From: an uncultured Acidobacteriota bacterium
GTDB taxonomy: Bacteria > Acidobacteriota > UBA6911
NCBI GenBank assembly: GCA_963843575.1
Contig: CAWJKZ010000015.1
Coordinates: forward strand, 96,001 to 160,000
Direction of reading: 5' to 3'
DNA length: 64,000 nucleotides
Shown here in pieces: positions 4,980 to 61,334 of this stretch; position 1 is the first letter of the stretch; the number at the start of each line of letters is the position of its first letter. A model generated the notes under the pieces. That model did not search any database. It saw nothing but the letters and a program-made list of their open reading frames with translations, and had not been told where the DNA came from. Made by a program: the position numbers and the translations under genes.

Positions 4980-5089
4980 CAAGTGGGTCCGGGCTTCAGC
5001 CCGGACGTCTTTAAAACCGTGCCATACAGCTACGCTTGCGCCGCATAGCGACCGCAACAAGCGTCCGGGCTGAAGCCCGGACCCACTTG
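4980..5089. repeat. REPIN-like doublet, family A (GTGG-GTCCGGGC-TTCA-GCCCGGAC)
   Basis: Two inverted 24-27 bp palindromic units between convergent genes. Confidence 0.9.
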
Positions 5090-15527: not shown

Positions 15528-15695
15528 CAAGTGGGTCCGGGTCTCAGCGGCTGTCCAACGATTGAACCACCCGCCCCGCCCGTAAAACAAGTGGGTCCGG
15601 GCTTCAGCCCGGACGTCTTTAGACCTGCCCTGTTTGGAGACAGACGAACTCAATAGCGACCGCAAACAGCGTCCGGGCTGAAGCCCGGACCCACT
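15528..15695. repeat. Family A REPIN-like triple cluster
   Basis: Degenerate unit, linker and inverted doublet; same layout as 58987-59154. Confidence 0.88.
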
Positions 15696-49930: not shown

Positions 49931-50893
49931 CTACGTCTTCGCCAGGATCGTACGTTCCAGGACGGCCTTGGTCAGTCTGACCCCCTTCAGCTCGTTTTCC
50001 CAGATCTGTTCAGGAGGGATCTGGGGCGGGGCTGCGGCACCCGGGGCGCGGCGCTCCGTCCTGGGATATGAGGATTCTATGCCGTAGAAACCGTGGTATC
50101 CGGAGTCGCGGCAGATCGTGAGCAGTTTCTCGAGATCCCAGCCCGTGTGCGTCTCGTCGGCGTTCCAGGACGCCTTCACCGAGATGCCCTTGGCGTAGGG
50201 GACGATCTTGCGCAGCACCTCGGCATTGTCGTCTCCCTCGTTGACGTTGCCGAAATCCGGGAGGGTCCCGAAATTCGGGTTGTTGACGGTCTTCATGAGG
50301 CTGACCAGAATTCCCGGGTCCGAGGAGGCCCCGCCGTGATTTTCGATGACCACGTTCATGTCCGCCTGCTTGGCATAGTCGAGCAGGTGGTTGAAGCTCT
50401 CCGCCGCGCGGCTGACAAGGTCCCTATCCTGTTTCCATTCGTCGCCTCGTCCACCCCCCATGTTGCAGCGGATCGCGTGGCAGCCCAGGTAGTGGCCGAC
50501 GTCGATCCACTTGCGGTGCAGGACGGCCGCCTGCATGCGCTCCGCCTTGTCTTTCGCCGACATGTCCCCCTCGCCGTCGACCATGACGAGTACGAAGGTG
50601 ATCCCGTTGGCGTTGGCGTTGTTCTTCAGCTGTTGGAGGTAGCGCTGCACCGGGTTTTCGAAGAACTGGTTGACGAGTTCGATCCCGTTGATGTTGAACT
50701 CCTGCCGCACGATCTTGGGCAGGTCGAGCAGCTTCCATTTCTTCGCCTGGAAGAAGCTGCGATTGATGGACCAGGCCGCTATTGAGATATCGTCCTTTGT
50801 CGGACGGTCCGCGGCGCGCAATGCGCCGCTGGTCACCGCCGCCGCGGCAGCCGCTGCCGAAGCGGACAAAAACTCCCGCCTTGTCGTTTCCAT
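49931..50893 (-). CDS. Tat-exported sugar phosphate isomerase/epimerase TIM-barrel protein
   Basis: TRREFL; ISIAAWS, IENHGG, LPDFGN, GIE. Confidence 0.9.
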   Translation of the reverse strand: METTRREFLSASAAAAAAAVTSGALRAADRPTKDDISIAAWSINRSFFQAKKWKLLDLPKIVRQEFNINGIELVNQFFENPVQRYLQQLKNNANANGITFVLVMVDGEGDMSAKDKAERMQAAVLHRKWIDVGHYLGCHAIRCNMGGGRGDEWKQDRDLVSRAAESFNHLLDYAKQADMNVVIENHGGASSDPGILVSLMKTVNNPNFGTLPDFGNVNEGDDNAEVLRKIVPYAKGISVKASWNADETHTGWDLEKLLTICRDSGYHGFYGIESSYPRTERRAPGAAAPPQIPPEQIWENELKGVRLTKAVLERTILAKT

Positions 50894-51042
50894 GTGTGCT
50901 CCCAATGAGTTACGCGTACAGGCCGTGTCCGGCTCCCGTCGCAGGCGCCGAACCGCGGCAGGGCGCGATTATATGACGATTCGAAGCGAATCGACAGAAA
51001 TGATCGGGCTATCGAAACTAGAAGGCGGGGCTGTCGTCGATC

Positions 51043-51216
51043 TCAGGGGTGCCGCGAGAGTTCCTGTGCCGGGTCGGGGGGCTTTTCTTCTTCGCGTCGC
51101 GACGCGACGTCGCACGAATTGGACATTCAGGTCTGCACGCCTAGGCGCGGGAGCACCCAGCGCATGGCCGCGAAATAGGCGGCGAAGACCAAGACCATCA
51201 CGAGCCATTCGGGCAT
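51043..51216 (-). CDS. Candidate small membrane selenoprotein (57 aa, UGA at codon 30)
   Basis: GAGGT RBS; MPEWLVMVLVFAAYFAAMRWVLPRLGVQT-(TGA 51127-51129)-MSNSCDVASRREEEKPPDPAQELSRHP; hairpin right after the UGA. Missed by the ORF track. Confidence 0.65.
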
Positions 51217-51233
51217 TTTAACCTCTACAAATA

Positions 51234-51242
51234 AGTATAGCA
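51234..51242 (-). promoter_or_regulatory. Extended -10 promoter for the small ORF
   Basis: Minus strand TGC-TATACT, 17 nt upstream of ATG 51216. Confidence 0.55.
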
Positions 51243-51293
51243 CGACGCGAGTCCAAGGCTCAGCCGCTATCCTCGATCGAAGACAACACAACA

Positions 51294-51384
51294 CAAGTGG
51301 GTCCGGGCTTCAGCCCGGACGCAGTTTGATCTGAGCTATATAGCGACCGCAAACTACGTCCGGGCTGAAGCCCGGACCCACTTG
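51294..51384. repeat. Family A REPIN-like doublet
   Basis: Perfect inverted 27-bp units. Confidence 0.9.
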
Positions 51385-51398
51385 GTTTTTAGGCGGTG

Positions 51399-52535
51399 TC
51401 AGTCGAGGCGCTTGCGAAAGAGGATGACGCTCAAGGTCAGGATTGAGGCGCCGAGCACGGTGAGCGACAGGATCTGCGGCCAGAGCAACTCGACTCCGAT
51501 CCCCTTGAGGAAGAGGCCGCGGACGATTTCCATGAAATACCGCATCGGGTTGAGGTAGGTGAGGTATTGCACGAGGGCAGGCATGTTGCGGATCGGGAAG
51601 GCGAACCCGCTCAGCAGCAGCGCGGGCATGAAGAAGAAAAAGGAAGATATCATCGCCTGCTGCTGGGTGTGGGAGATGCCGGAGATGAACAGGCCGATCC
51701 CCAGGGTGGCAAGCAGGAACAGAACGGAACAGGCGAACAGGGCCGGGACGCTGCCGCGCAGGGGAGTTCGAAACACCACGAGGGCGGCCAATGTCACGAG
51801 GGCGACCTCGAAGATTCCGATGATGGCAAACGGAAGGATCTTGCCGAGGATCAGCTCGACGGCCCGGATTGGGGTGACCATGAGCTGTTCCATGGTGCCG
51901 ATCTCTTTTTCGCGGACGACGCTCATGGCGGTGAGCATGATGGTGACCAGGGCGATGATGTTCACGACCACGCCGGGAACGAAGTAGTCCTGGCTCTTCA
52001 GCTCGGGGTTGAACCAGATGCGGTGGCGCACCGAGACGGACGGAACCGCGGCGGCCGCAGACCCTCCGCCTGCCGCCGCCTGCCGCCGGGCCGCCACCGC
52101 GGCCGCGTAGCTCGCCACGACCTGCCCGGCATAGCTGGAGGCAATGGCGGCGGTGTTCGAATTGGTCCCGTCGACGAGGATCTGGACCGCGGCGCTGTTC
52201 CCGCGGCGGATGTCGCGTCCGAAGCCGGGGAGCAGGCGCACTACGGCCTGGACCCTTCCGCGGTCGAGCAGTCCGCGCACCTCGTCCTCGCGCGCGGGGG
52301 TGGCGGTAATCTCGAAATAGCGCGATCCCTGAAACGCAGCCAGCAGTTCGCGGCTCTCGGGCGTGCGGTCCATGTCCATCCAGGCGGTGCGCGTGTGCTC
52401 CACGTCGAGGTTGACGGCGTACCCGAAGATGACCAGCTGCAGCAGCGGCGGACCGAACAGCAGGGCGCGCGTCCTCGCGTCCCGGAGGGTCTGGCGGAAC
52501 TCTTTCTTTATGATCTCCCGGATCCTTCCCCACAT
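51399..52535 (-). CDS. ABC-2 permease (YbhR-like)
   Basis: KKEFRQTLRD, FNPELKSQDYFVPG, REKEIGTMEQL. Confidence 0.92.
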   Translation of the reverse strand: MWGRIREIIKKEFRQTLRDARTRALLFGPPLLQLVIFGYAVNLDVEHTRTAWMDMDRTPESRELLAAFQGSRYFEITATPAREDEVRGLLDRGRVQAVVRLLPGFGRDIRRGNSAAVQILVDGTNSNTAAIASSYAGQVVASYAAAVAARRQAAAGGGSAAAAVPSVSVRHRIWFNPELKSQDYFVPGVVVNIIALVTIMLTAMSVVREKEIGTMEQLMVTPIRAVELILGKILPFAIIGIFEVALVTLAALVVFRTPLRGSVPALFACSVLFLLATLGIGLFISGISHTQQQAMISSFFFFMPALLLSGFAFPIRNMPALVQYLTYLNPMRYFMEIVRGLFLKGIGVELLWPQILSLTVLGASILTLSVILFRKRLD

Positions 52536-52536
52536 G

Positions 52537-53673
52537 TCATGCCACCTTTTGTCTCAACCTGCGGGTTGCGAGCAGGAAAACGAGCCCGCCGTAGGCGGCG
52601 AGCAGGGCCGTTTCGAACCAGAGGATTTCGATGCCCACGCCGCGCAGGAATATCCCCTTGAGGATCGTGACAAAGTAACGGGTGGGGAACACGTAGGTGA
52701 CGACCTGGATGGGCAAGGGCATGTTCTCGATCGAGAACACGAACCCGGAGAGCAGGAAGGCGGGGAGGAACGAGGTCAGCATAGCCAGCTGGTAGGCGAC
52801 GAGCTGGGTGCGTGCGAGCGCGGAGAGAAGGATGCCCCAGAACAGGGCGCCGACCAGGAAAAGCGAGCCGGTGAAGGCCAGCAGGAGGAGGCTCCCGGCC
52901 ATGGGCACCTGGAACACGCCGACACCGACCACGATGGTCAGCGTCATGTCCACGATCCCGAGGCCGAAGTACGCCGACATCTTCCCGAACGCCACTTCGG
53001 ACGGCCGCAGCGGGGTCGAGAGCAGCTGCTCCATGGTGCCCATCTCCCACTCGCGAGCCAGCGTCAGCGAGGTGAGCAGGGCTCCGATGATCATCAGGAT
53101 CAGGGCGATCAGCCCGGGGACGATGTAGTTTTTCGACTTGAGTTCGCTGTTGTACCAGATCCGCAGCCGGGCTTCGACCGGCGGAGGGGAGACGGGGGCG
53201 CCGGCCCGGGCGTTGAGCGCTTTCCCGCGCATCTCCGCGAAATAGGCCTGAAGGAGGGCGTTGGCGTAGCCCGAGGCGATCGAAGCGGTGTTCGAATCGC
53301 TGCCGTCGAAAATCAGCTGCACCTGAGCTTCGCGCCCGGCCAGCAGGTCGCGTGCGTAACCCCTCGGAACGACCAGGGCCATCATGCAGCTGCTGCGGTT
53401 GATCTCCCGTTCGACGGTCCGGTACGTTTCGGCCTCGCCGACTAGCTCGAAGTACCGCGATCCCTCGAAGCGCGAGACCAGCGCGCGGCTCTCCGGACTC
53501 CGGTCCGAGTCGTAGACGACGGTGGGGATGCGGTCCACGTCCAGGGTGAGGGCGTAGCCGAACAGCAGGATCATCAGCAGCGGGAGGGCGAGCGCGAGCG
53601 TGAGGCTGCGCGGATCCCGGACGATGTGCAGGAACTCCTTGTGGGCCACGGCCTTGGTCCGGCGGAGGTTCAT
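52537..53673 (-). CDS. ABC-2 permease (YbhS-like)
   Basis: KEFLHIVRD, REWEMGTMEQL; ATG 53673 overlaps the upstream stop. Confidence 0.92.
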   Translation of the reverse strand: MNLRRTKAVAHKEFLHIVRDPRSLTLALALPLLMILLFGYALTLDVDRIPTVVYDSDRSPESRALVSRFEGSRYFELVGEAETYRTVEREINRSSCMMALVVPRGYARDLLAGREAQVQLIFDGSDSNTASIASGYANALLQAYFAEMRGKALNARAGAPVSPPPVEARLRIWYNSELKSKNYIVPGLIALILMIIGALLTSLTLAREWEMGTMEQLLSTPLRPSEVAFGKMSAYFGLGIVDMTLTIVVGVGVFQVPMAGSLLLLAFTGSLFLVGALFWGILLSALARTQLVAYQLAMLTSFLPAFLLSGFVFSIENMPLPIQVVTYVFPTRYFVTILKGIFLRGVGIEILWFETALLAAYGGLVFLLATRRLRQKVA

Positions 53674-54614
53674 GACGTCTTGCGCTCCTCCCGCTCGATC
53701 AGGGCCACGAACACGTCCTCCAGCGAAGGCGGGATGGGCTCGAAGCGCCGGATGGAAATTCCCGCCCGGGTCAGCGCGGCGCGCGCTGCGGCGCCGGCCG
53801 CCGCCGGCTCGTCGACGGTGACGTGCAGGCCGCCGCCGAACACCGCCACGTCCCCGATGCCGGGCACGCCGCGCAGCGCTTTCATGCTGGCCGACGTGTC
53901 GGAGGACTCCAGGACCATGAGGTTGCCTGCGCCGAAATCCCGCTTCATGTGGTCCGGGGTGCCGAGCGCGATGATGCGGCCGCGGTACATGAGGGCCAGC
54001 CGGTGGCAGTACTCGGCCTCGTCCATGTAATGGGTGGAGACAAACACCGTGTGGCCCGCGTCCGACAGCCGGTAGATGAGCTCCCAGAAGGTGCGCCGCG
54101 CGAGCGGGTCGACGCCCGACGTTGGCTCGTCCAGGAACAGGATCGGGGGCTGATGAAGGATGGCGCAGCCGAGCGCGAGGCGCTGCTTCCAGCCTCCGGC
54201 CAGTTCTCGGGTCATGGAGGAAGCCCGGTCTTCCAGCCCGGCCATGCGCAGCGCTTCGGCCTTGCGCTCGTTGCGGATCGCGCCGGGGACGCTGTAGACG
54301 CCGGCGAAGAAATCGAGGTTCTCCCCGACCGTCAGGTCGTCGTAGAGGGAAAACTTCTGGGACATGTAGCCTATGCTGCCCCGCACGGTTTCCGGTTTGC
54401 GGGCGACGTCGACCCCTCCGACAAGCGCCTGGCCGGCGGTGGGGACCAGCAGCCCGCAGAGCATCCGGATCGTGGTCGATTTCCCTGCGCCGTTCGGGCC
54501 CAGGAAGCCGAAGATCTCGCCCCGGGACACCTCGAACGAAACGTCGTCGACGGCGACAAACGTGCCGAACCGCTTGACGAGGCGCCTCACCTCCACGGCC
54601 ATCGCGGGGGTCAT
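53670..54614 (-). CDS. ABC ATP-binding protein
   Basis: GPNGAGKST, LAGGWKQR, LDEPT, THYMDEAE. Confidence 0.94.
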   Translation of the reverse strand: MTPAMAVEVRRLVKRFGTFVAVDDVSFEVSRGEIFGFLGPNGAGKSTTIRMLCGLLVPTAGQALVGGVDVARKPETVRGSIGYMSQKFSLYDDLTVGENLDFFAGVYSVPGAIRNERKAEALRMAGLEDRASSMTRELAGGWKQRLALGCAILHQPPILFLDEPTSGVDPLARRTFWELIYRLSDAGHTVFVSTHYMDEAEYCHRLALMYRGRIIALGTPDHMKRDFGAGNLMVLESSDTSASMKALRGVPGIGDVAVFGGGLHVTVDEPAAAGAAARAALTRAGISIRRFEPIPPSLEDVFVALIEREERKTS

Positions 54615-55567
54615 GGTTGTGCTCCGGGCGGTCTGTCCGTGTCCGCCCCCGCCTTCTGCACGAGCGCGATGAACACGTCTTCGAGCGACGGGACCATGCG
54701 GGCGAGGCGGGCGGGGCCGAGTCCACGGGCGTCGAGCGCCTCCTGCAGTTGCTCCGGTGTCGCGGGCCCCGGCGCCAGGAACAGGTGTAGGGACGATCCG
54801 GCAGGCTGGACGCTCAGTACCTGCGGGAGCGTCTCGAGGAAGGCCTTGGCAGCCCGCCGGTCCGGCGCGAGCACTTCGTAGCACGGTTCCTCCATCTGGG
54901 TGCGCAGCTGCTCGGGCGCGTCGCACCGTATGAGCCTCCCGCGGTACATCAGGCCGACGCGGTTGCAGCGCTCGGCCTCGTCGAGGTAGGCGGTCGCGAT
55001 GAGGACAGTCAGCCCGTCGTTGACGAGCTGGTAGAGGATGGCCCAGAAGTCGCGACGCGAGACCGGGTCGACGCCGTTGGTCGGCTCGTCGAGGAAAAGC
55101 ACCTGCGGGCGGTGCAGCAGGGTGCACATCAGGGCGAGCTTCTGCTTCATCCCGCCCGAGAGTTTCCCGGCGGGCCTGTTGCGGAACGGCTCCATCCGGG
55201 TCATCTGCAGCAGCCGCGGCATGAGCTCCTGCCGCTCGGCGCGGCTGATGCCGAACAGGTCGGCGTAAAAGAGCATGTTCTCCTGGACGGTGAGGTCGAC
55301 GTAGAGCCCGAAGCGCTGCGCCATGTAGCCGATACGGTCTTTCACCCCTTCGGGCTGCGCGCCGACGTCGAGCCCGGCGACCGACAGGGTGCCCCCGTCC
55401 GGATCCAGCAGGCCGCACAAAAGCCGCAGGGTGGTCGTCTTTCCCGCGCCGTCGGGGCCCACCAGCCCGAAGATCTCCCCTGGCGCGATGTCGAGGCTCA
55501 GGCCGTCGACGGCCGTGAGCCCGCCGAAGCGCCGCGTCAGGTCCCGGATCTGCACCATGGGCGGCAT
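54611..55567 (-). CDS. ABC ATP-binding protein
   Basis: GPDGAGKTT, LSGGMKQK, LDEPT. Confidence 0.94.
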   Translation of the reverse strand: MPPMVQIRDLTRRFGGLTAVDGLSLDIAPGEIFGLVGPDGAGKTTTLRLLCGLLDPDGGTLSVAGLDVGAQPEGVKDRIGYMAQRFGLYVDLTVQENMLFYADLFGISRAERQELMPRLLQMTRMEPFRNRPAGKLSGGMKQKLALMCTLLHRPQVLFLDEPTNGVDPVSRRDFWAILYQLVNDGLTVLIATAYLDEAERCNRVGLMYRGRLIRCDAPEQLRTQMEEPCYEVLAPDRRAAKAFLETLPQVLSVQPAGSSLHLFLAPGPATPEQLQEALDARGLGPARLARMVPSLEDVFIALVQKAGADTDRPPGAQP

Positions 55568-58986: not shown

Positions 58987-59154
58987 GTGGGTCCCGGGCT
59001 GAAGAGGCTGTCCAACGGTTGAACCCCCCGCCCTGCCCATCAAACAAGTGGGTCCGGGCTTCAGCCCGGACCCAGTTTGCAGTTGCCATGCAGGGGCAGG
59101 TGGAGCTTATGGAACGGATTTAAAGACGTCCGGGCTGAAGCCCGGACCCACTTG
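58987..59154. repeat. Family A REPIN-like triple cluster
   Basis: Same layout and linker as 15528-15695. Confidence 0.88.
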
Positions 59155-59186
59155 TGGTTTGCCGTGCACTCGATGGCGCCCGCATA

Positions 59187-61334
59187 CTACAGGTAGAGGC
59201 GGTAGGTGATCTTGAAGATCGCGGCGCGCTGGCTCAGCATCCAGCCGCCGGCCCGGTCGAGCTGGCGCTCGTTGAAGACCAGGTACACGTTCGAATCCCT
59301 GGCGTAGATGACGCGCAGCAGGATGTTGGCCGAGAACTCCCGGGTGATGCTGTTCCACTGCAGCAGCCCGCTGATGCCGAGGTTGGGGTTGTGGTCGTAG
59401 CCGACCCGGACGCGGGCGACCGACGTCGAAAAACCGCCGGTCGGCAGGCGCACCCGGTTGTACTCGTACTGCCAGGTCGTCCGGAACCGGGGGGAGAACT
59501 GCACCGTGTTCGACAGCAGCGCGGTCTGCTCGGTGCCGTTGTAAAAGCTCCCCCATGAGCATTCCGCGCGGCCGTACACGCGGCGGCTGTTGGCGGAGGT
59601 GAAATCCAGGGTCGTCCGCTGGAAGCCGTAAGGGGCGAGGGGGATCGTCACCTCGGGCATGATGCGGAAATCCTCGGTCAGCTGTTCGAACTGCCGGGAG
59701 TATGCGGCGCCGAAGTGGGCGCCCGAGGGGAGGACGTTACTGGCCTCCACGGCGGCCACGCGCGTCAGCAGCCGTCCTCCCGTGTCGGTGAGATAGGAGA
59801 TGCCGGCCGTGAGGTCGACGTTGCGGCTCCAGCCCCGGTTGAAGCGATGCCGGTGCCGGCCGACGCCCTCGGCCGACCGGATGTCGCGCCGCCGCACGTA
59901 ACCGATGCCGGGGTCGAAGCCCGCGCCGACGGTTTTCTCGGAAAGGGTCAGGCCCCACGAGTCGGTCTGGTAATCGAGCGAGGCGAGGTGCGCCGTGCCG
60001 TCCGGGTCCGTCCCGCTGTTGACCGTCGAAGCCACGAAACCCTTGAACTGGAGCGTCGGGGAGAGCCACAGGCTGGTGTCCAGCCCATACGCGCGGTTCT
60101 CGTACCTGGTGTTGTCGGCATTGGTGAAGATCGCGCCGACGGTCGACCGGCCGCGCAGGCCCCGGCGCAGCCGGACGACCGAGTAGTTGGTGGCAGGCTG
60201 GTCGGGCGATTCCTTAGTCTGCATGTTCATGACGCCCACGTCGTACCTGCCGGCTTTCCCGGTGAGCCGCGCGCCGCCGAAGATGGGTACCTCGTGCCCG
60301 TTCGCGATCCCGATCCTGCGGCTGAAGAAGAGCTGCGTGTCGGCGGCAACGCCAAAATCAAAGACGCTGGCCGATTCCAGGAAAAACTCGCGCTTCTCGG
60401 GGAAAAACAGGCTGAACCGCGTGAGGTTCACCTGGGTCTCGTCGGCCTCCACCTGCGCGAAATCGGTGTTGGCCGTCAGGTCGAGCGTCATGTTCGAGCC
60501 CAACACGTACTTGACGTCGAGGCTGGGTTCGACGTCGTACCGGGCGCGCTCGAGCCCCTCGGCCTGCAGCCTCGTCGGGACCAGCGCCGGGATCGCCTGC
60601 AGGTTCCGCTGCTGGGCGAGGTCCGCGAAACCCGACAGGTTGCCGGCATACCCGAGGTGCGAGACGTCGTACTGGGTCGGCACCGGTGACCAGTAATCCC
60701 ACTCCTGCTTGTGCTGGATGCGGCGCTGCACGTTGAAGCCCCAGACGTCGCGCCCGGGCTGGAAGCGCAGCACGCGCACCGGGATCCGAAACTCGGCGCA
60801 CCAGCCGTCGGGCTGCAGCGACGAGTGCACATCCCAGACCTCGTCCCAGTTGTTGTTGAACCCCTTGAACCCGTCCACCTGGGTGTCGTGTTTGGCGCCG
60901 TTGGCGTTGGTGAGAAATATGAACCCGCGCAGGTGATCGTGAAAGGTGTCGAAGATCACCTCGATCGTGTCGTCCTGCGGCAGGTTGTCGTGCCGCCGGA
61001 TCTTGTTCCGCCTTATGGATCTCGGCTCCTGGTACATGTAGGCGCCGACGTAGATGTAGCGATCGTCCCGCATGATCCGGACGACCGTTTCGTCGGAAGC
61101 CTTCTCCCCGTTGTAGGGCACCCTTTGGGTGAAATCCCCGAGCACGGTCGCATCCAGCCACGCGGCGTCGGTGAGGACGCCGTCGATCACCGGGGCCCGG
61201 GACGTCCGGGAAATCGCCGCGGACCGGTTCGGCGCATCCGCCGCAGGGGCCTGGCCGCAGAAACCCGCGGCATGTTCCCAGAGAAGCGCCAGCAGCAGCG
61301 TACACAGCAAGTTCCTGAAACCGACCACGTGCAC
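59187..61334 (-). CDS. DUF5916/CBM9-like outer-membrane protein
   Basis: PVIDGVL.D..W, NTDFAQVEAD, RFSLFFPEKREFFLE, FFSRRIG; start uncertain. Confidence 0.88.
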   Translation of the reverse strand: MHVVGFRNLLCTLLLALLWEHAAGFCGQAPAADAPNRSAAISRTSRAPVIDGVLTDAAWLDATVLGDFTQRVPYNGEKASDETVVRIMRDDRYIYVGAYMYQEPRSIRRNKIRRHDNLPQDDTIEVIFDTFHDHLRGFIFLTNANGAKHDTQVDGFKGFNNNWDEVWDVHSSLQPDGWCAEFRIPVRVLRFQPGRDVWGFNVQRRIQHKQEWDYWSPVPTQYDVSHLGYAGNLSGFADLAQQRNLQAIPALVPTRLQAEGLERARYDVEPSLDVKYVLGSNMTLDLTANTDFAQVEADETQVNLTRFSLFFPEKREFFLESASVFDFGVAADTQLFFSRRIGIANGHEVPIFGGARLTGKAGRYDVGVMNMQTKESPDQPATNYSVVRLRRGLRGRSTVGAIFTNADNTRYENRAYGLDTSLWLSPTLQFKGFVASTVNSGTDPDGTAHLASLDYQTDSWGLTLSEKTVGAGFDPGIGYVRRRDIRSAEGVGRHRHRFNRGWSRNVDLTAGISYLTDTGGRLLTRVAAVEASNVLPSGAHFGAAYSRQFEQLTEDFRIMPEVTIPLAPYGFQRTTLDFTSANSRRVYGRAECSWGSFYNGTEQTALLSNTVQFSPRFRTTWQYEYNRVRLPTGGFSTSVARVRVGYDHNPNLGISGLLQWNSITREFSANILLRVIYARDSNVYLVFNERQLDRAGGWMLSQRAAIFKITYRLYL

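Follow-up and report, generated by a model that had tools for sequence, protein, structure and literature searches.

Does a short reading frame with an internal UGA, on the minus strand of an uncultured acidobacterial genome, encode a selenoprotein? The frame spans positions 51216 to 51043 of the window, the 64,000-nucleotide (nt) stretch of contig CAWJKZ010000015.1 that was analyzed, and an earlier note made from the sequence alone had read it as a hidden membrane micro-selenoprotein. Our analysis supports that idea: the in-frame UGA is conserved, homologs with Cys in its place exist, a hairpin just downstream of it covaries, and the genome carries genes for selenocysteine (Sec) decoding. Judged from these sequence data, the locus is very probably a selenoprotein gene with a predicted 57-residue, single-helix membrane product in which Sec would stand just after the helix.

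Layout of the gene

Re-reading the DNA confirmed the arrangement described in the note, namely an ATG at 51216 preceded by GAGGT, a hydrophobic helix, a TGA, the residues MSNSC, and a second TGA at 51043-51045. The letters of its extended -10 element are also present, but a promoter scan of the locus returned 0 matches to the full sigma-70 consensus. The features of the gene are:

51043 to 51216, minus strand: whole gene, 57 sense codons including the predicted Sec30, plus the true stop; homologs have the same architecture
51234 to 51242, minus strand: possible extended -10 element, TGC TATACT (TGCTATACT), read by eye
51221 to 51226, minus strand: Shine-Dalgarno-like AGAGGT, 5-10 nt 5' of the ATG (GAGGT is 51225-51221)
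51130 to 51216, minus strand: N-terminal 29 codons, MPEWLVMVLVFAAYFAAMRWVLPRLGVQT, with the predicted transmembrane helix and the LP..G..T motif; this is the entire gene-caller product
51127 to 51129, minus strand: UGA predicted to be read as selenocysteine, U30; TGA in 43 of 43 unbiased Sec forms, Cys in homologs
51112 to 51114, minus strand: codon of Cys35, the U-x4-C partner of U30, 5' of the hairpin stem
51095 to 51109, minus strand: hairpin resembling a Sec insertion sequence (SECIS), with a 6-base-pair (bp) stem and a GUC loop; the loop, 51103-51101, begins 23 nt past the UGA
51046 to 51094, minus strand: charged tail rich in Pro, Glu, Ser and Lys, predicted to be disordered (coil; predicted local distance difference test score, pLDDT, 55-68)
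51043 to 51045, minus strand: true stop, TGA; TAG or TAA in many relatives

The start codon occupies 51216-51214, and the stem strands are 51109-51104 paired with 51100-51095. After the UGA, the read-through part is MSNSCDVASRREEEKPPDPAQELSRHP, followed by the second TGA. Most relatives have a purine-rich GGAG or GAGG upstream of the start codon. A mechanical list of open reading frames (ORFs) breaks the locus into a 29-codon core and a 27-codon ORF.

Conservation of the in-frame UGA and of the frame beyond it

The read-through product, with Sec written as Cys, was searched against six-frame translations of the window's genome and of 60 related ones. At E<=1e-5 there were matches in 30 of these 61 genomes, each of which crosses an in-frame TGA and reaches query positions 43-58; the recurrence of an ORF with the same in-frame TGA is a feature far beyond chance. 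The first 32 residues of the 20 best loci can be aligned without a gap, and L22, P23, G26, T29, the TGA, M31 and R40 are invariant among them. Homolog alignments keep M/x-S-x-S-C after the UGA, and the only insertion or deletion in the conserved post-UGA stretch is one whole codon, in 3 of the 20 sequences. When a profile of the read-through products was run on 401 genomes sampled evenly across the phylum, 105 genomes matched: 99 with the in-frame TGA, 5 with matches ending before that codon, and 1 with TGT.

A degenerate DNA motif pattern scanned over one genome per GTDB species found at least 120 stretches; among the 120 matches listed, 113 have TGA and 7 have TGY. Because this pattern fixes ATG at +1 and Cys at +5 and is thus biased for both features, the corresponding tallies were taken from 43 Sec forms that came from profile or protein searches and were not chosen on the tallied features. 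In this unbiased set, the first stop is always TGA (43/43) and never TAA or TAG, and the terminal stop is TGA in 18, TAG in 17 and TAA in 7, one locus running off its contig. All 43 keep the frame open past the first TGA, over 18-31 codons (median, 26); the other two frames run for 0-508 codons. Directly after the TGA, 37 forms have M, 3 have R, 2 have A and 1 has L; a Cys follows at +5 in 37 forms and at +6 in another 3, and Cys35 is invariant in one family alignment (A4). Beyond the first 11 post-UGA codons the tail is rich in E, P, S and K, and from about that point only its length and composition are conserved. The in-frame TGA occupies the same codon in 152 distinct sequences from independent assemblies and several phyla. 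The comparison that the earlier note had proposed, whether homologs carry TGA or Cys at position 30, thus found both, with conservation and an open frame continuing past that position; homologs ending in TAA or TAG there, which the note had named as evidence to the contrary, are absent from the unbiased Sec forms.

Cysteine homologs and taxonomic range

The phylum match with TGT (genome G399, locus L051) has an uninterrupted ORF, ...LPAMGIGT-C-MSGACKVPAPHK..., in a genome without selA and without a tRNA-Sec above the gathering score. When a profile was run on 1.84 billion representative proteins, 1914 matched at E<=1e-3, of which 131 reached E<=1e-10. Full-length proteins of the form ...NRWVLPWFGVPT-C-MSGAC..., 50-100 residues long, are numerous among them, and others are 29-31-residue fragments ending ...GVxT. 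A few entries have W, G or S at the Sec position (P0002, P0006, P0010, P0029 and P0005); they apparently stem from gene calling under codes in which TGA is reassigned. A word-indexed protein search returned 288 proteins at E<=1e-5; the best 120 of these are mostly 29 residues long, and all 120 are named "hypothetical protein." Such entries bear out both the note's mention of small hypotheticals ending ..LPxxGxxT and its claim that gene callers truncate the product at 29 residues. The protein profile search also yielded P0093 (208 residues), in which the family helix and T-C-MSGQC are fused to a complete thioredoxin domain (TIGR01068; 105.7 bits, over the cut-off); a dedicated search for longer fused forms found none at E<=1e-6, which is weak evidence.

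Among the 80 record titles listed for the DNA pattern scan, Acidobacteriota are represented by Bryobacteraceae, Solibacter, Terriglobia and Pyrinomonadaceae, Planctomycetota by Pirellulaceae, Gemmataceae, Isosphaeraceae and Kuenenia, and Desulfobacterota-type bacteria by Syntrophobacter, Smithella, Desulfomonile and Desulfuromonadales; Verrucomicrobiota, Rokubacteria and Myxococcales are among the further lineages. Labels of metagenome-assembled genomes can err, and single odd taxon labels are unreliable. The family is present in Acidobacteriota, Planctomycetota, Desulfobacterota, Verrucomicrobiota and other phyla, with Cys or, by prediction, Sec at position 30.

A covarying hairpin downstream of the UGA

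In 20 close relatives, a stem of 6-7 bp starts 16-17 nt after the UGA and is capped by a G-U-N loop, which starts 23 nt after the UGA or, in three relatives with an extra codon, 26 nt after it. RNAalifold predicts the same stem. Across this alignment 95.7% of cells are paired, compared with 14-46% when the 3' partners are slid, three pairs are compensated (CG/GC/UA, UA/UG/CG and AU/GC/CG), and 0 of 500 column shuffles reach the observed covariation score. A covariance model made from the same alignment and searched on 100 loci from other families and phyla gave 54 matches at E<=1e-3. In these, 94.1% of cells are paired (22-45% when slid), compensatory changes affect 6 of 7 pairs, 85 cells show double changes, and 0 of 500 shuffles reach the covariation score; the wider pairing figures flatter the structure, because the matches were aligned by fitting them to the model and are related to one another.

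An alignment-free finder was also applied to the downstream 63-mers of 152 distinct Sec forms, with 3040 dinucleotide shuffles as the control. A hairpin was accepted if its stem had 5 bp or more and its loop had 3-8 nt, carried a G as first or second nucleotide, and began 14-37 nt past the UGA. Such hairpins were present in 145 of the 152 Sec forms (31% of shuffles), with stems of 6 bp or more in 128 (12%) and of 7 bp or more in 84 (5%), and the commonest loops were GUC (56) and GGUC (16). The bacterial SECIS consensus, as summarized in a 2026 review, is a small apical loop with G in its first two positions, 16-37 nt from the UGA (PMC13188914), and the features of the family hairpin match it. 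We posit that the ribosome decodes the UGA at codon 30 as Sec under the direction of this hairpin, whose G-U apical loop lies ~23 nt downstream and would presumably be bound by SelB carrying Sec-tRNA(Sec).

Selenocysteine-decoding machinery

The window's own genome has a tRNA-Sec (74.6 bits) and an intact selB (373 bits). Its selA is in four or five pieces in different frames (G000:C8:2711-3523, L001-L005), and its selD is split between two frames (G000:C13:704799-705723, L017 and L018). SelD itself appears to contain Sec: an in-frame TGA lies at its catalytic site, SCAG-U-ASKLS (L017, G000:C13:704799-705260), and the 8-bp hairpin downstream shares the GUC loop of the micro-selenoprotein gene. 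A Sec-type formate dehydrogenase (FdhA) was not found in this genome. The assembly probably contains indel errors, because it is in 27 contigs and is 88% complete; the selA pieces reflect either such errors or decay of selA. With tRNA-Sec, selB, a Sec-containing selD and the selA pieces, the gene content is that of a genome predicted to decode Sec; the machinery that the note had asked for (selA, selB, selC and selD) is present, selA as pieces only. In genome G001, from the same genus, selA is also in pieces.

Within the window's class, selA and selB each exceed their cut-offs in 58 of 61 genomes. In the phylum sample of 401, selA was called at E<=1e-40 in 101 of the 105 genomes with the gene versus 199 of the 296 without it. 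The four gene-bearing genomes that lack a selA call are the window's own (selA in pieces), G273 and G369, both of which have a tRNA-Sec above threshold, and G399, which has the Cys form. The class tallies of selA and selB include the unpublished genome G046, and the phylum selA tally also includes G083 and G201; none of the three carries the gene. We place no weight on the p-value of the selA association because kin are not independent.

Predicted protein and topology

The 57-residue product would consist of an N-terminal transmembrane helix, a juxtamembrane W-x-L-P-x-x-G-x-x-T-U-M-S-x-S-C segment, and a disordered acidic/prolyl tail. AlphaFold, run with a 36-sequence alignment, predicts one helix over residues 3-24, with pLDDT ~89 over residues 1-20, followed by low-confidence coil. 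Over 80 members, the mean count of Lys plus Arg is 0.8 on the N-terminal side of the helix and 3.2 on its C-terminal side, with net charges of about -0.2 and +2.1, respectively; the two flanks compared differ in length. Because positive charge is concentrated after the helix, the bias suggests an N-out/C-in topology, in which the Sec/Cys pair and the tail would be cytoplasmic.

Genomic neighborhood and possible function

What would such a protein do? ORFs within 3 kb of the gene were clustered over 156 loci, and the recurrent clusters were annotated. Rhodanese-domain or YgaP-like neighbors occur at 20 loci and comprise YgaP-type membrane rhodaneses, fusions of a persulfide-dioxygenase-type metallo-beta-lactamase fold to rhodanese, and CoA-disulfide reductases, some with a rhodanese domain. 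Thioredoxin-fold neighbors (the whole redoxin cluster) occur at 18 loci; a WCxPC thioredoxin-like ORF lies within 3 kb at 11, and at 8 it is directly downstream on the same strand. Several of these WCxPC neighbors are TrxA-like proteins of ~110 residues without a signal peptide. Other recurrent neighbors are ArsR/SmtB-family regulators with weak BigR-like scores (15 loci), ECF sigma factors (14), RND pumps (10), universal stress proteins (10), SQR-like flavoproteins (6), TauE/SafE (5) and cysteine desulfurase (5). At least one sulfur or redox neighbor is found at 57 of the 156 loci and at least two at 24. Several Planctomycetota-labeled loci combine a regulator, a rhodanese, a persulfide-dioxygenase-rhodanese, the micro-selenoprotein gene, TauE and an SQR-like gene; full sulfide/persulfide gene sets are confined to a few Planctomycetota-labeled loci (L131, L154, L161 and L176).

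DUF302 proteins are encoded at 19 of the 156 loci, in every case directly beside the gene and in its orientation. They lack a signal peptide, contain two conserved Cys residues, and may be a thiol-based partner of the micro-selenoprotein. These neighbors are ~135 residues long, with the conserved Cys in ILGACNP and LLLPCNV motifs, and belong to loci L025, L027, L030, L050, L060, L062, L081, L095, L100, L114, L116, L117, L132, L152, L159, L166, L167, L177 and L179.

From this context we tentatively propose, at less than even confidence, that the protein is a thioredoxin-recycled, membrane-tethered Sec/Cys redox pair engaged in thiol or sulfane-sulfur chemistry. The U-x4-C pair would cycle between selenol/thiol and selenenylsulfide at the inner membrane face, thioredoxin would recycle the oxidized pair, and the chemistry served would be that of thiols or sulfane sulfur (persulfides), beside rhodanese/YgaP, persulfide dioxygenase, SQR and TauE-type systems. 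A bolder version, which we hold to be doubtful, would make the family a pan-bacterial, SelK/SelS-like micro-selenoprotein, the smallest known for membranes and among the more widespread bacterial families; as a membrane-tethered selenol, it would take on sulfane sulfur or reduce persulfides and selenenylsulfides on the cytoplasmic side, in the service of SQR, rhodanese and TauE systems, with thioredoxin as its recycling partner.

The main functional rival keeps the selenoprotein and changes its substrate: the Sec/Cys pair could bind or hand over soft metals or metalloids at the membrane, as an accessory to efflux. On the same strand, upstream of the window's copy, lie genes for an outer-membrane efflux protein (OEP), an HlyD-type adaptor, two ABC ATPase domains and two ABC-2 permeases. 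In the family, RND pumps are near 10 of the 156 loci, HlyD near 7 and OEP near 6, and several loci have the order ArsR, DUF302, micro-selenoprotein gene, OEP, HlyD, RND. The RND pump at L180 is of the CusA/CzcA type (1141 bits), the nearby ArsR/SmtB-family regulators are classed as metalloregulators, and Sec/Cys pairs of other selenoproteins bind soft metals according to Table 1 of the 2026 review (PMC13188914). However, 4 of the 5 RND neighbors scanned score best as multidrug-type, all four below curated cut-offs; thioredoxin, rhodanese, persulfide dioxygenase, SQR and TauE neighbors are at least as frequent; and no metal-binding family matched. The note had placed the gene downstream of the efflux operon, which is right as to location and strand, but the link is not conserved in the family. 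We regard a metal-handling role as unlikely.

Weighing the selenoprotein assignment

Several observations weigh against the assignment or against the function proposed for it. Judged by the window sequence alone, the hairpin does not exceed shuffles in stability (z -0.46; 59 of 200 shuffles fold as well), and its significance comes only from the relatives: the SECIS-like stem with a GU loop that the note had pointed out is present and covaries among them but is unremarkable in the single sequence. The sequences are related, so that the shuffle counts and the selA association overstate significance, and selA is near-universal in the window's class, where co-occurrence therefore discriminates little. 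The Cys forms, a small control, have a weak hairpin in 3 of 8 cases, at scattered positions. Three of the 43 unbiased Sec forms are without the Cys at +5 or +6, two of these having a Cys at -5 (LPACGVQT-U), and the assembled part of the same-genus genome G001 (81% complete) contains no copy of the gene. As to function, gene order around the family lacks overall conservation, a sulfur or redox neighbor occurs at only 57 of 156 loci, and the window's own locus has none, its copy being flanked by the efflux operon and a xylose-isomerase-like TIM-barrel gene; the cytoplasmic placement of the Sec/Cys pair follows from charge bias only.

Could these data be explained without Sec? One possibility is that the 29-residue peptide alone is made, the hairpin being a regulatory or terminator-like RNA and the downstream conservation acting at the RNA level. 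Post-UGA protein conservation is indeed strongest over ~11 codons that overlap the hairpin, and the tail is poorly conserved. Yet the conserved Cys codon and the M/S codons precede the stem, and what is conserved in them is the amino acid; Cys forms retain T-C-MSGxC without a consistent hairpin, the frame remains open for 18-31 codons of hydrophilic composition in all 43 Sec forms, and no U run follows the stem. This explanation appears very unlikely.

Less credible still, with only a slight chance of being correct, is a pair of mini-genes, in which a 29-residue membrane peptide ends at an ordinary TGA and a 27-residue peptide is made by termination-reinitiation at TGAATG. TGA is a common stop in G+C-rich genomes, and an ATG directly follows it in the window and in 37 of the 43 unbiased Sec forms. 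The other 6, however, have R, A or L directly behind the TGA and still keep the downstream motif; restart at an adjacent ATG is therefore not a general explanation. Two mini-genes would also not account for a first stop that is TGA in 43 of 43 while the real stop varies, or for Cys homologs that are one uninterrupted ORF with the same motif, and they give the covarying hairpin and the link to the Sec machinery no role. Assembly or sequencing error, which the note had raised, or a pseudogene of a Cys-encoding gene could be suspected from the frame breaks in selA and selD of the same assembly, but we count both as refuted, because more than 150 independent assemblies, with 152 distinct sequences from several phyla, carry the same TGA at the same codon. 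Sec insertion at the UGA remains the explanation that we favor.

Relation to known selenoproteins

Neither Pfam-A nor NCBIfam 20.0 (June 2026) has a family for the window product. NCBIfam has none for 15 Sec forms, the window's and 14 from other phyla, even at E<=10 or E<=1, and among 13 Cys forms the one real match to Pfam-A or NCBIfam is the thioredoxin domain of the fusion P0093. A PDB sequence search found nothing, and a protein atlas returned only "hypothetical protein, Planctomycetota" (score 0.85). Table 1 of the 2026 review lists 119 prokaryotic selenoprotein families and subfamilies, none with T-U-x4-C or a described single-pass membrane form (PMC13188914). Supplementary lists aside, nothing similar is mentioned in the paper on deep-Sep, which reports 3 known and 0 new selenoprotein genes in its one tested Acidobacteriota genome (PMC12013277), or in that on BSepDB (PMC13326102). 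Full-text literature searches, with supplementary tables outside their scope, found no description of the family. As far as the sources searched reach, the family is undescribed.

SELENOK, like SELENOS a eukaryotic selenoprotein, crosses the membrane once through a helix at its N-terminal end; its cytosolic tail is disordered, and its Sec pairs with a Cys close by. SelS (SELENOS) is described as a 189-residue transmembrane protein with a proposed selenosulfide between Sec188 and Cys174 (PMC3628699). The micro-selenoprotein would share with both one N-terminal transmembrane helix, a disordered cytosolic tail, and Sec with a nearby Cys, but the likeness is architectural only. There is no sequence kinship (Pfam, which holds SelK_SelG and Selenoprotein_S, gave no match at E<=1), and the micro-selenoprotein is three times smaller. 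Sec lies near the C-terminal end in SELENOS and SELENOK and, by prediction, at the membrane interface in the micro-selenoprotein; they use a SECIS in the 3' untranslated region, whereas it would use a bacterial in-ORF hairpin.

Small bacterial families in the same review, namely OS_HP3 (dual-CXXC), KCU-star, UXX-star, TsoA (LULAxC), hypothetical DG, DW and DF, and GOS_B/C (PMC13188914), are likewise short, found by computation only, truncated by annotation, and endowed with Cys homologs and with Sec in a redox-type motif; their NCBIfam models match none of the 15 Sec and 13 Cys forms tested, even at E<=10 or E<=1. Membrane selenoproteins of transport listed there (the MerT-like putative mercuric transporter, the SaoP permease, YeeE/YedE and the SO_0444 efflux transporter) also place Sec in or at the membrane and handle sulfur compounds or soft metals (PMC13188914; Haft and Gwadz 2022), but they are polytopic and have known Pfam or NCBIfam domains, in contrast to a 57-residue single helix without a domain match. 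YgaP-type membrane rhodanese/DUF2892 proteins resemble the predicted product in having a membrane-anchored reactive Cys that faces the cytoplasm and an association with sulfur transfer, and they are its neighbors in several loci; the YgaP-like transmembrane family (PF11127) does not match it, and architecture and motif differ.

Other features of the window

Downstream of the gene lies the xylose-isomerase-like TIM-barrel gene, whose product has a twin-arginine (TAT) signal; locus L194 of genome G001 matches only this side (window 50901-51020). Upstream, one further element separates the gene from the ABC-2 operon:

51293 to 51385, no strand assigned: repetitive extragenic palindrome (REP)-like inverted repeat between the ABC-2 operon and the gene; it is outside the gene and bounds its transcription unit

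Copies of this element occur in the window at 51293-51385, 4986-5083, 15594-15691 and 59051-59148. Its 21-base core, GGTCCGGGCTTCAGCCCGGAC, has 10 copies in the window (at most 2 mismatches) and 300 in the genome (154 forward, 146 reverse), mostly in inverted pairs 57-77 nt apart. An Rfam scan of 50800-51500 gave only spurious matches of microRNA (miRNA) type on the repeat, which Rfam takes for miRNA precursors, and matched no SECIS family. A tRNA-Ser (anticodon TGA; 59178-59254, plus strand) directly follows the REP-like pair at 59051-59148. At 53670-55567 on the minus strand, the overlapping ORFs 53670-55418 and 54611-55567, with one ABC ATPase domain each, look like a double-ATPase gene split by a frame shift, which fits the indel errors elsewhere in the assembly. 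The first half of the 729-residue ORF 52537-54726 has no family match.

Implications

If confirmed, the gene would add one family to the 119 selenoprotein families counted in 2026 and, with a single transmembrane helix and Sec at the membrane interface, one whose form is unlike all of those listed (PMC13188914). The family occurs in about one in four of the genomes sampled from the phylum and in at least four further phyla, yet censuses of small proteins and of selenoproteomes both miss it because gene callers emit a 29-residue "hypothetical protein" or nothing. Some annotation pipelines misread the family TGA as Trp or Gly, and entries with W, G or S at this position are a pitfall when alternative genetic codes are inferred. 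A 57-residue protein is short enough for chemical synthesis with Sec, which makes the proposed chemistry directly testable. The gene may be among those that retain the Sec trait where selenoproteins are few; in its own genome a Sec-containing SelD but no Sec-type FdhA was found. Should the pan-bacterial sulfane-sulfur reading prove true, selenium would stand at the center of bacterial reactive-sulfur homeostasis.

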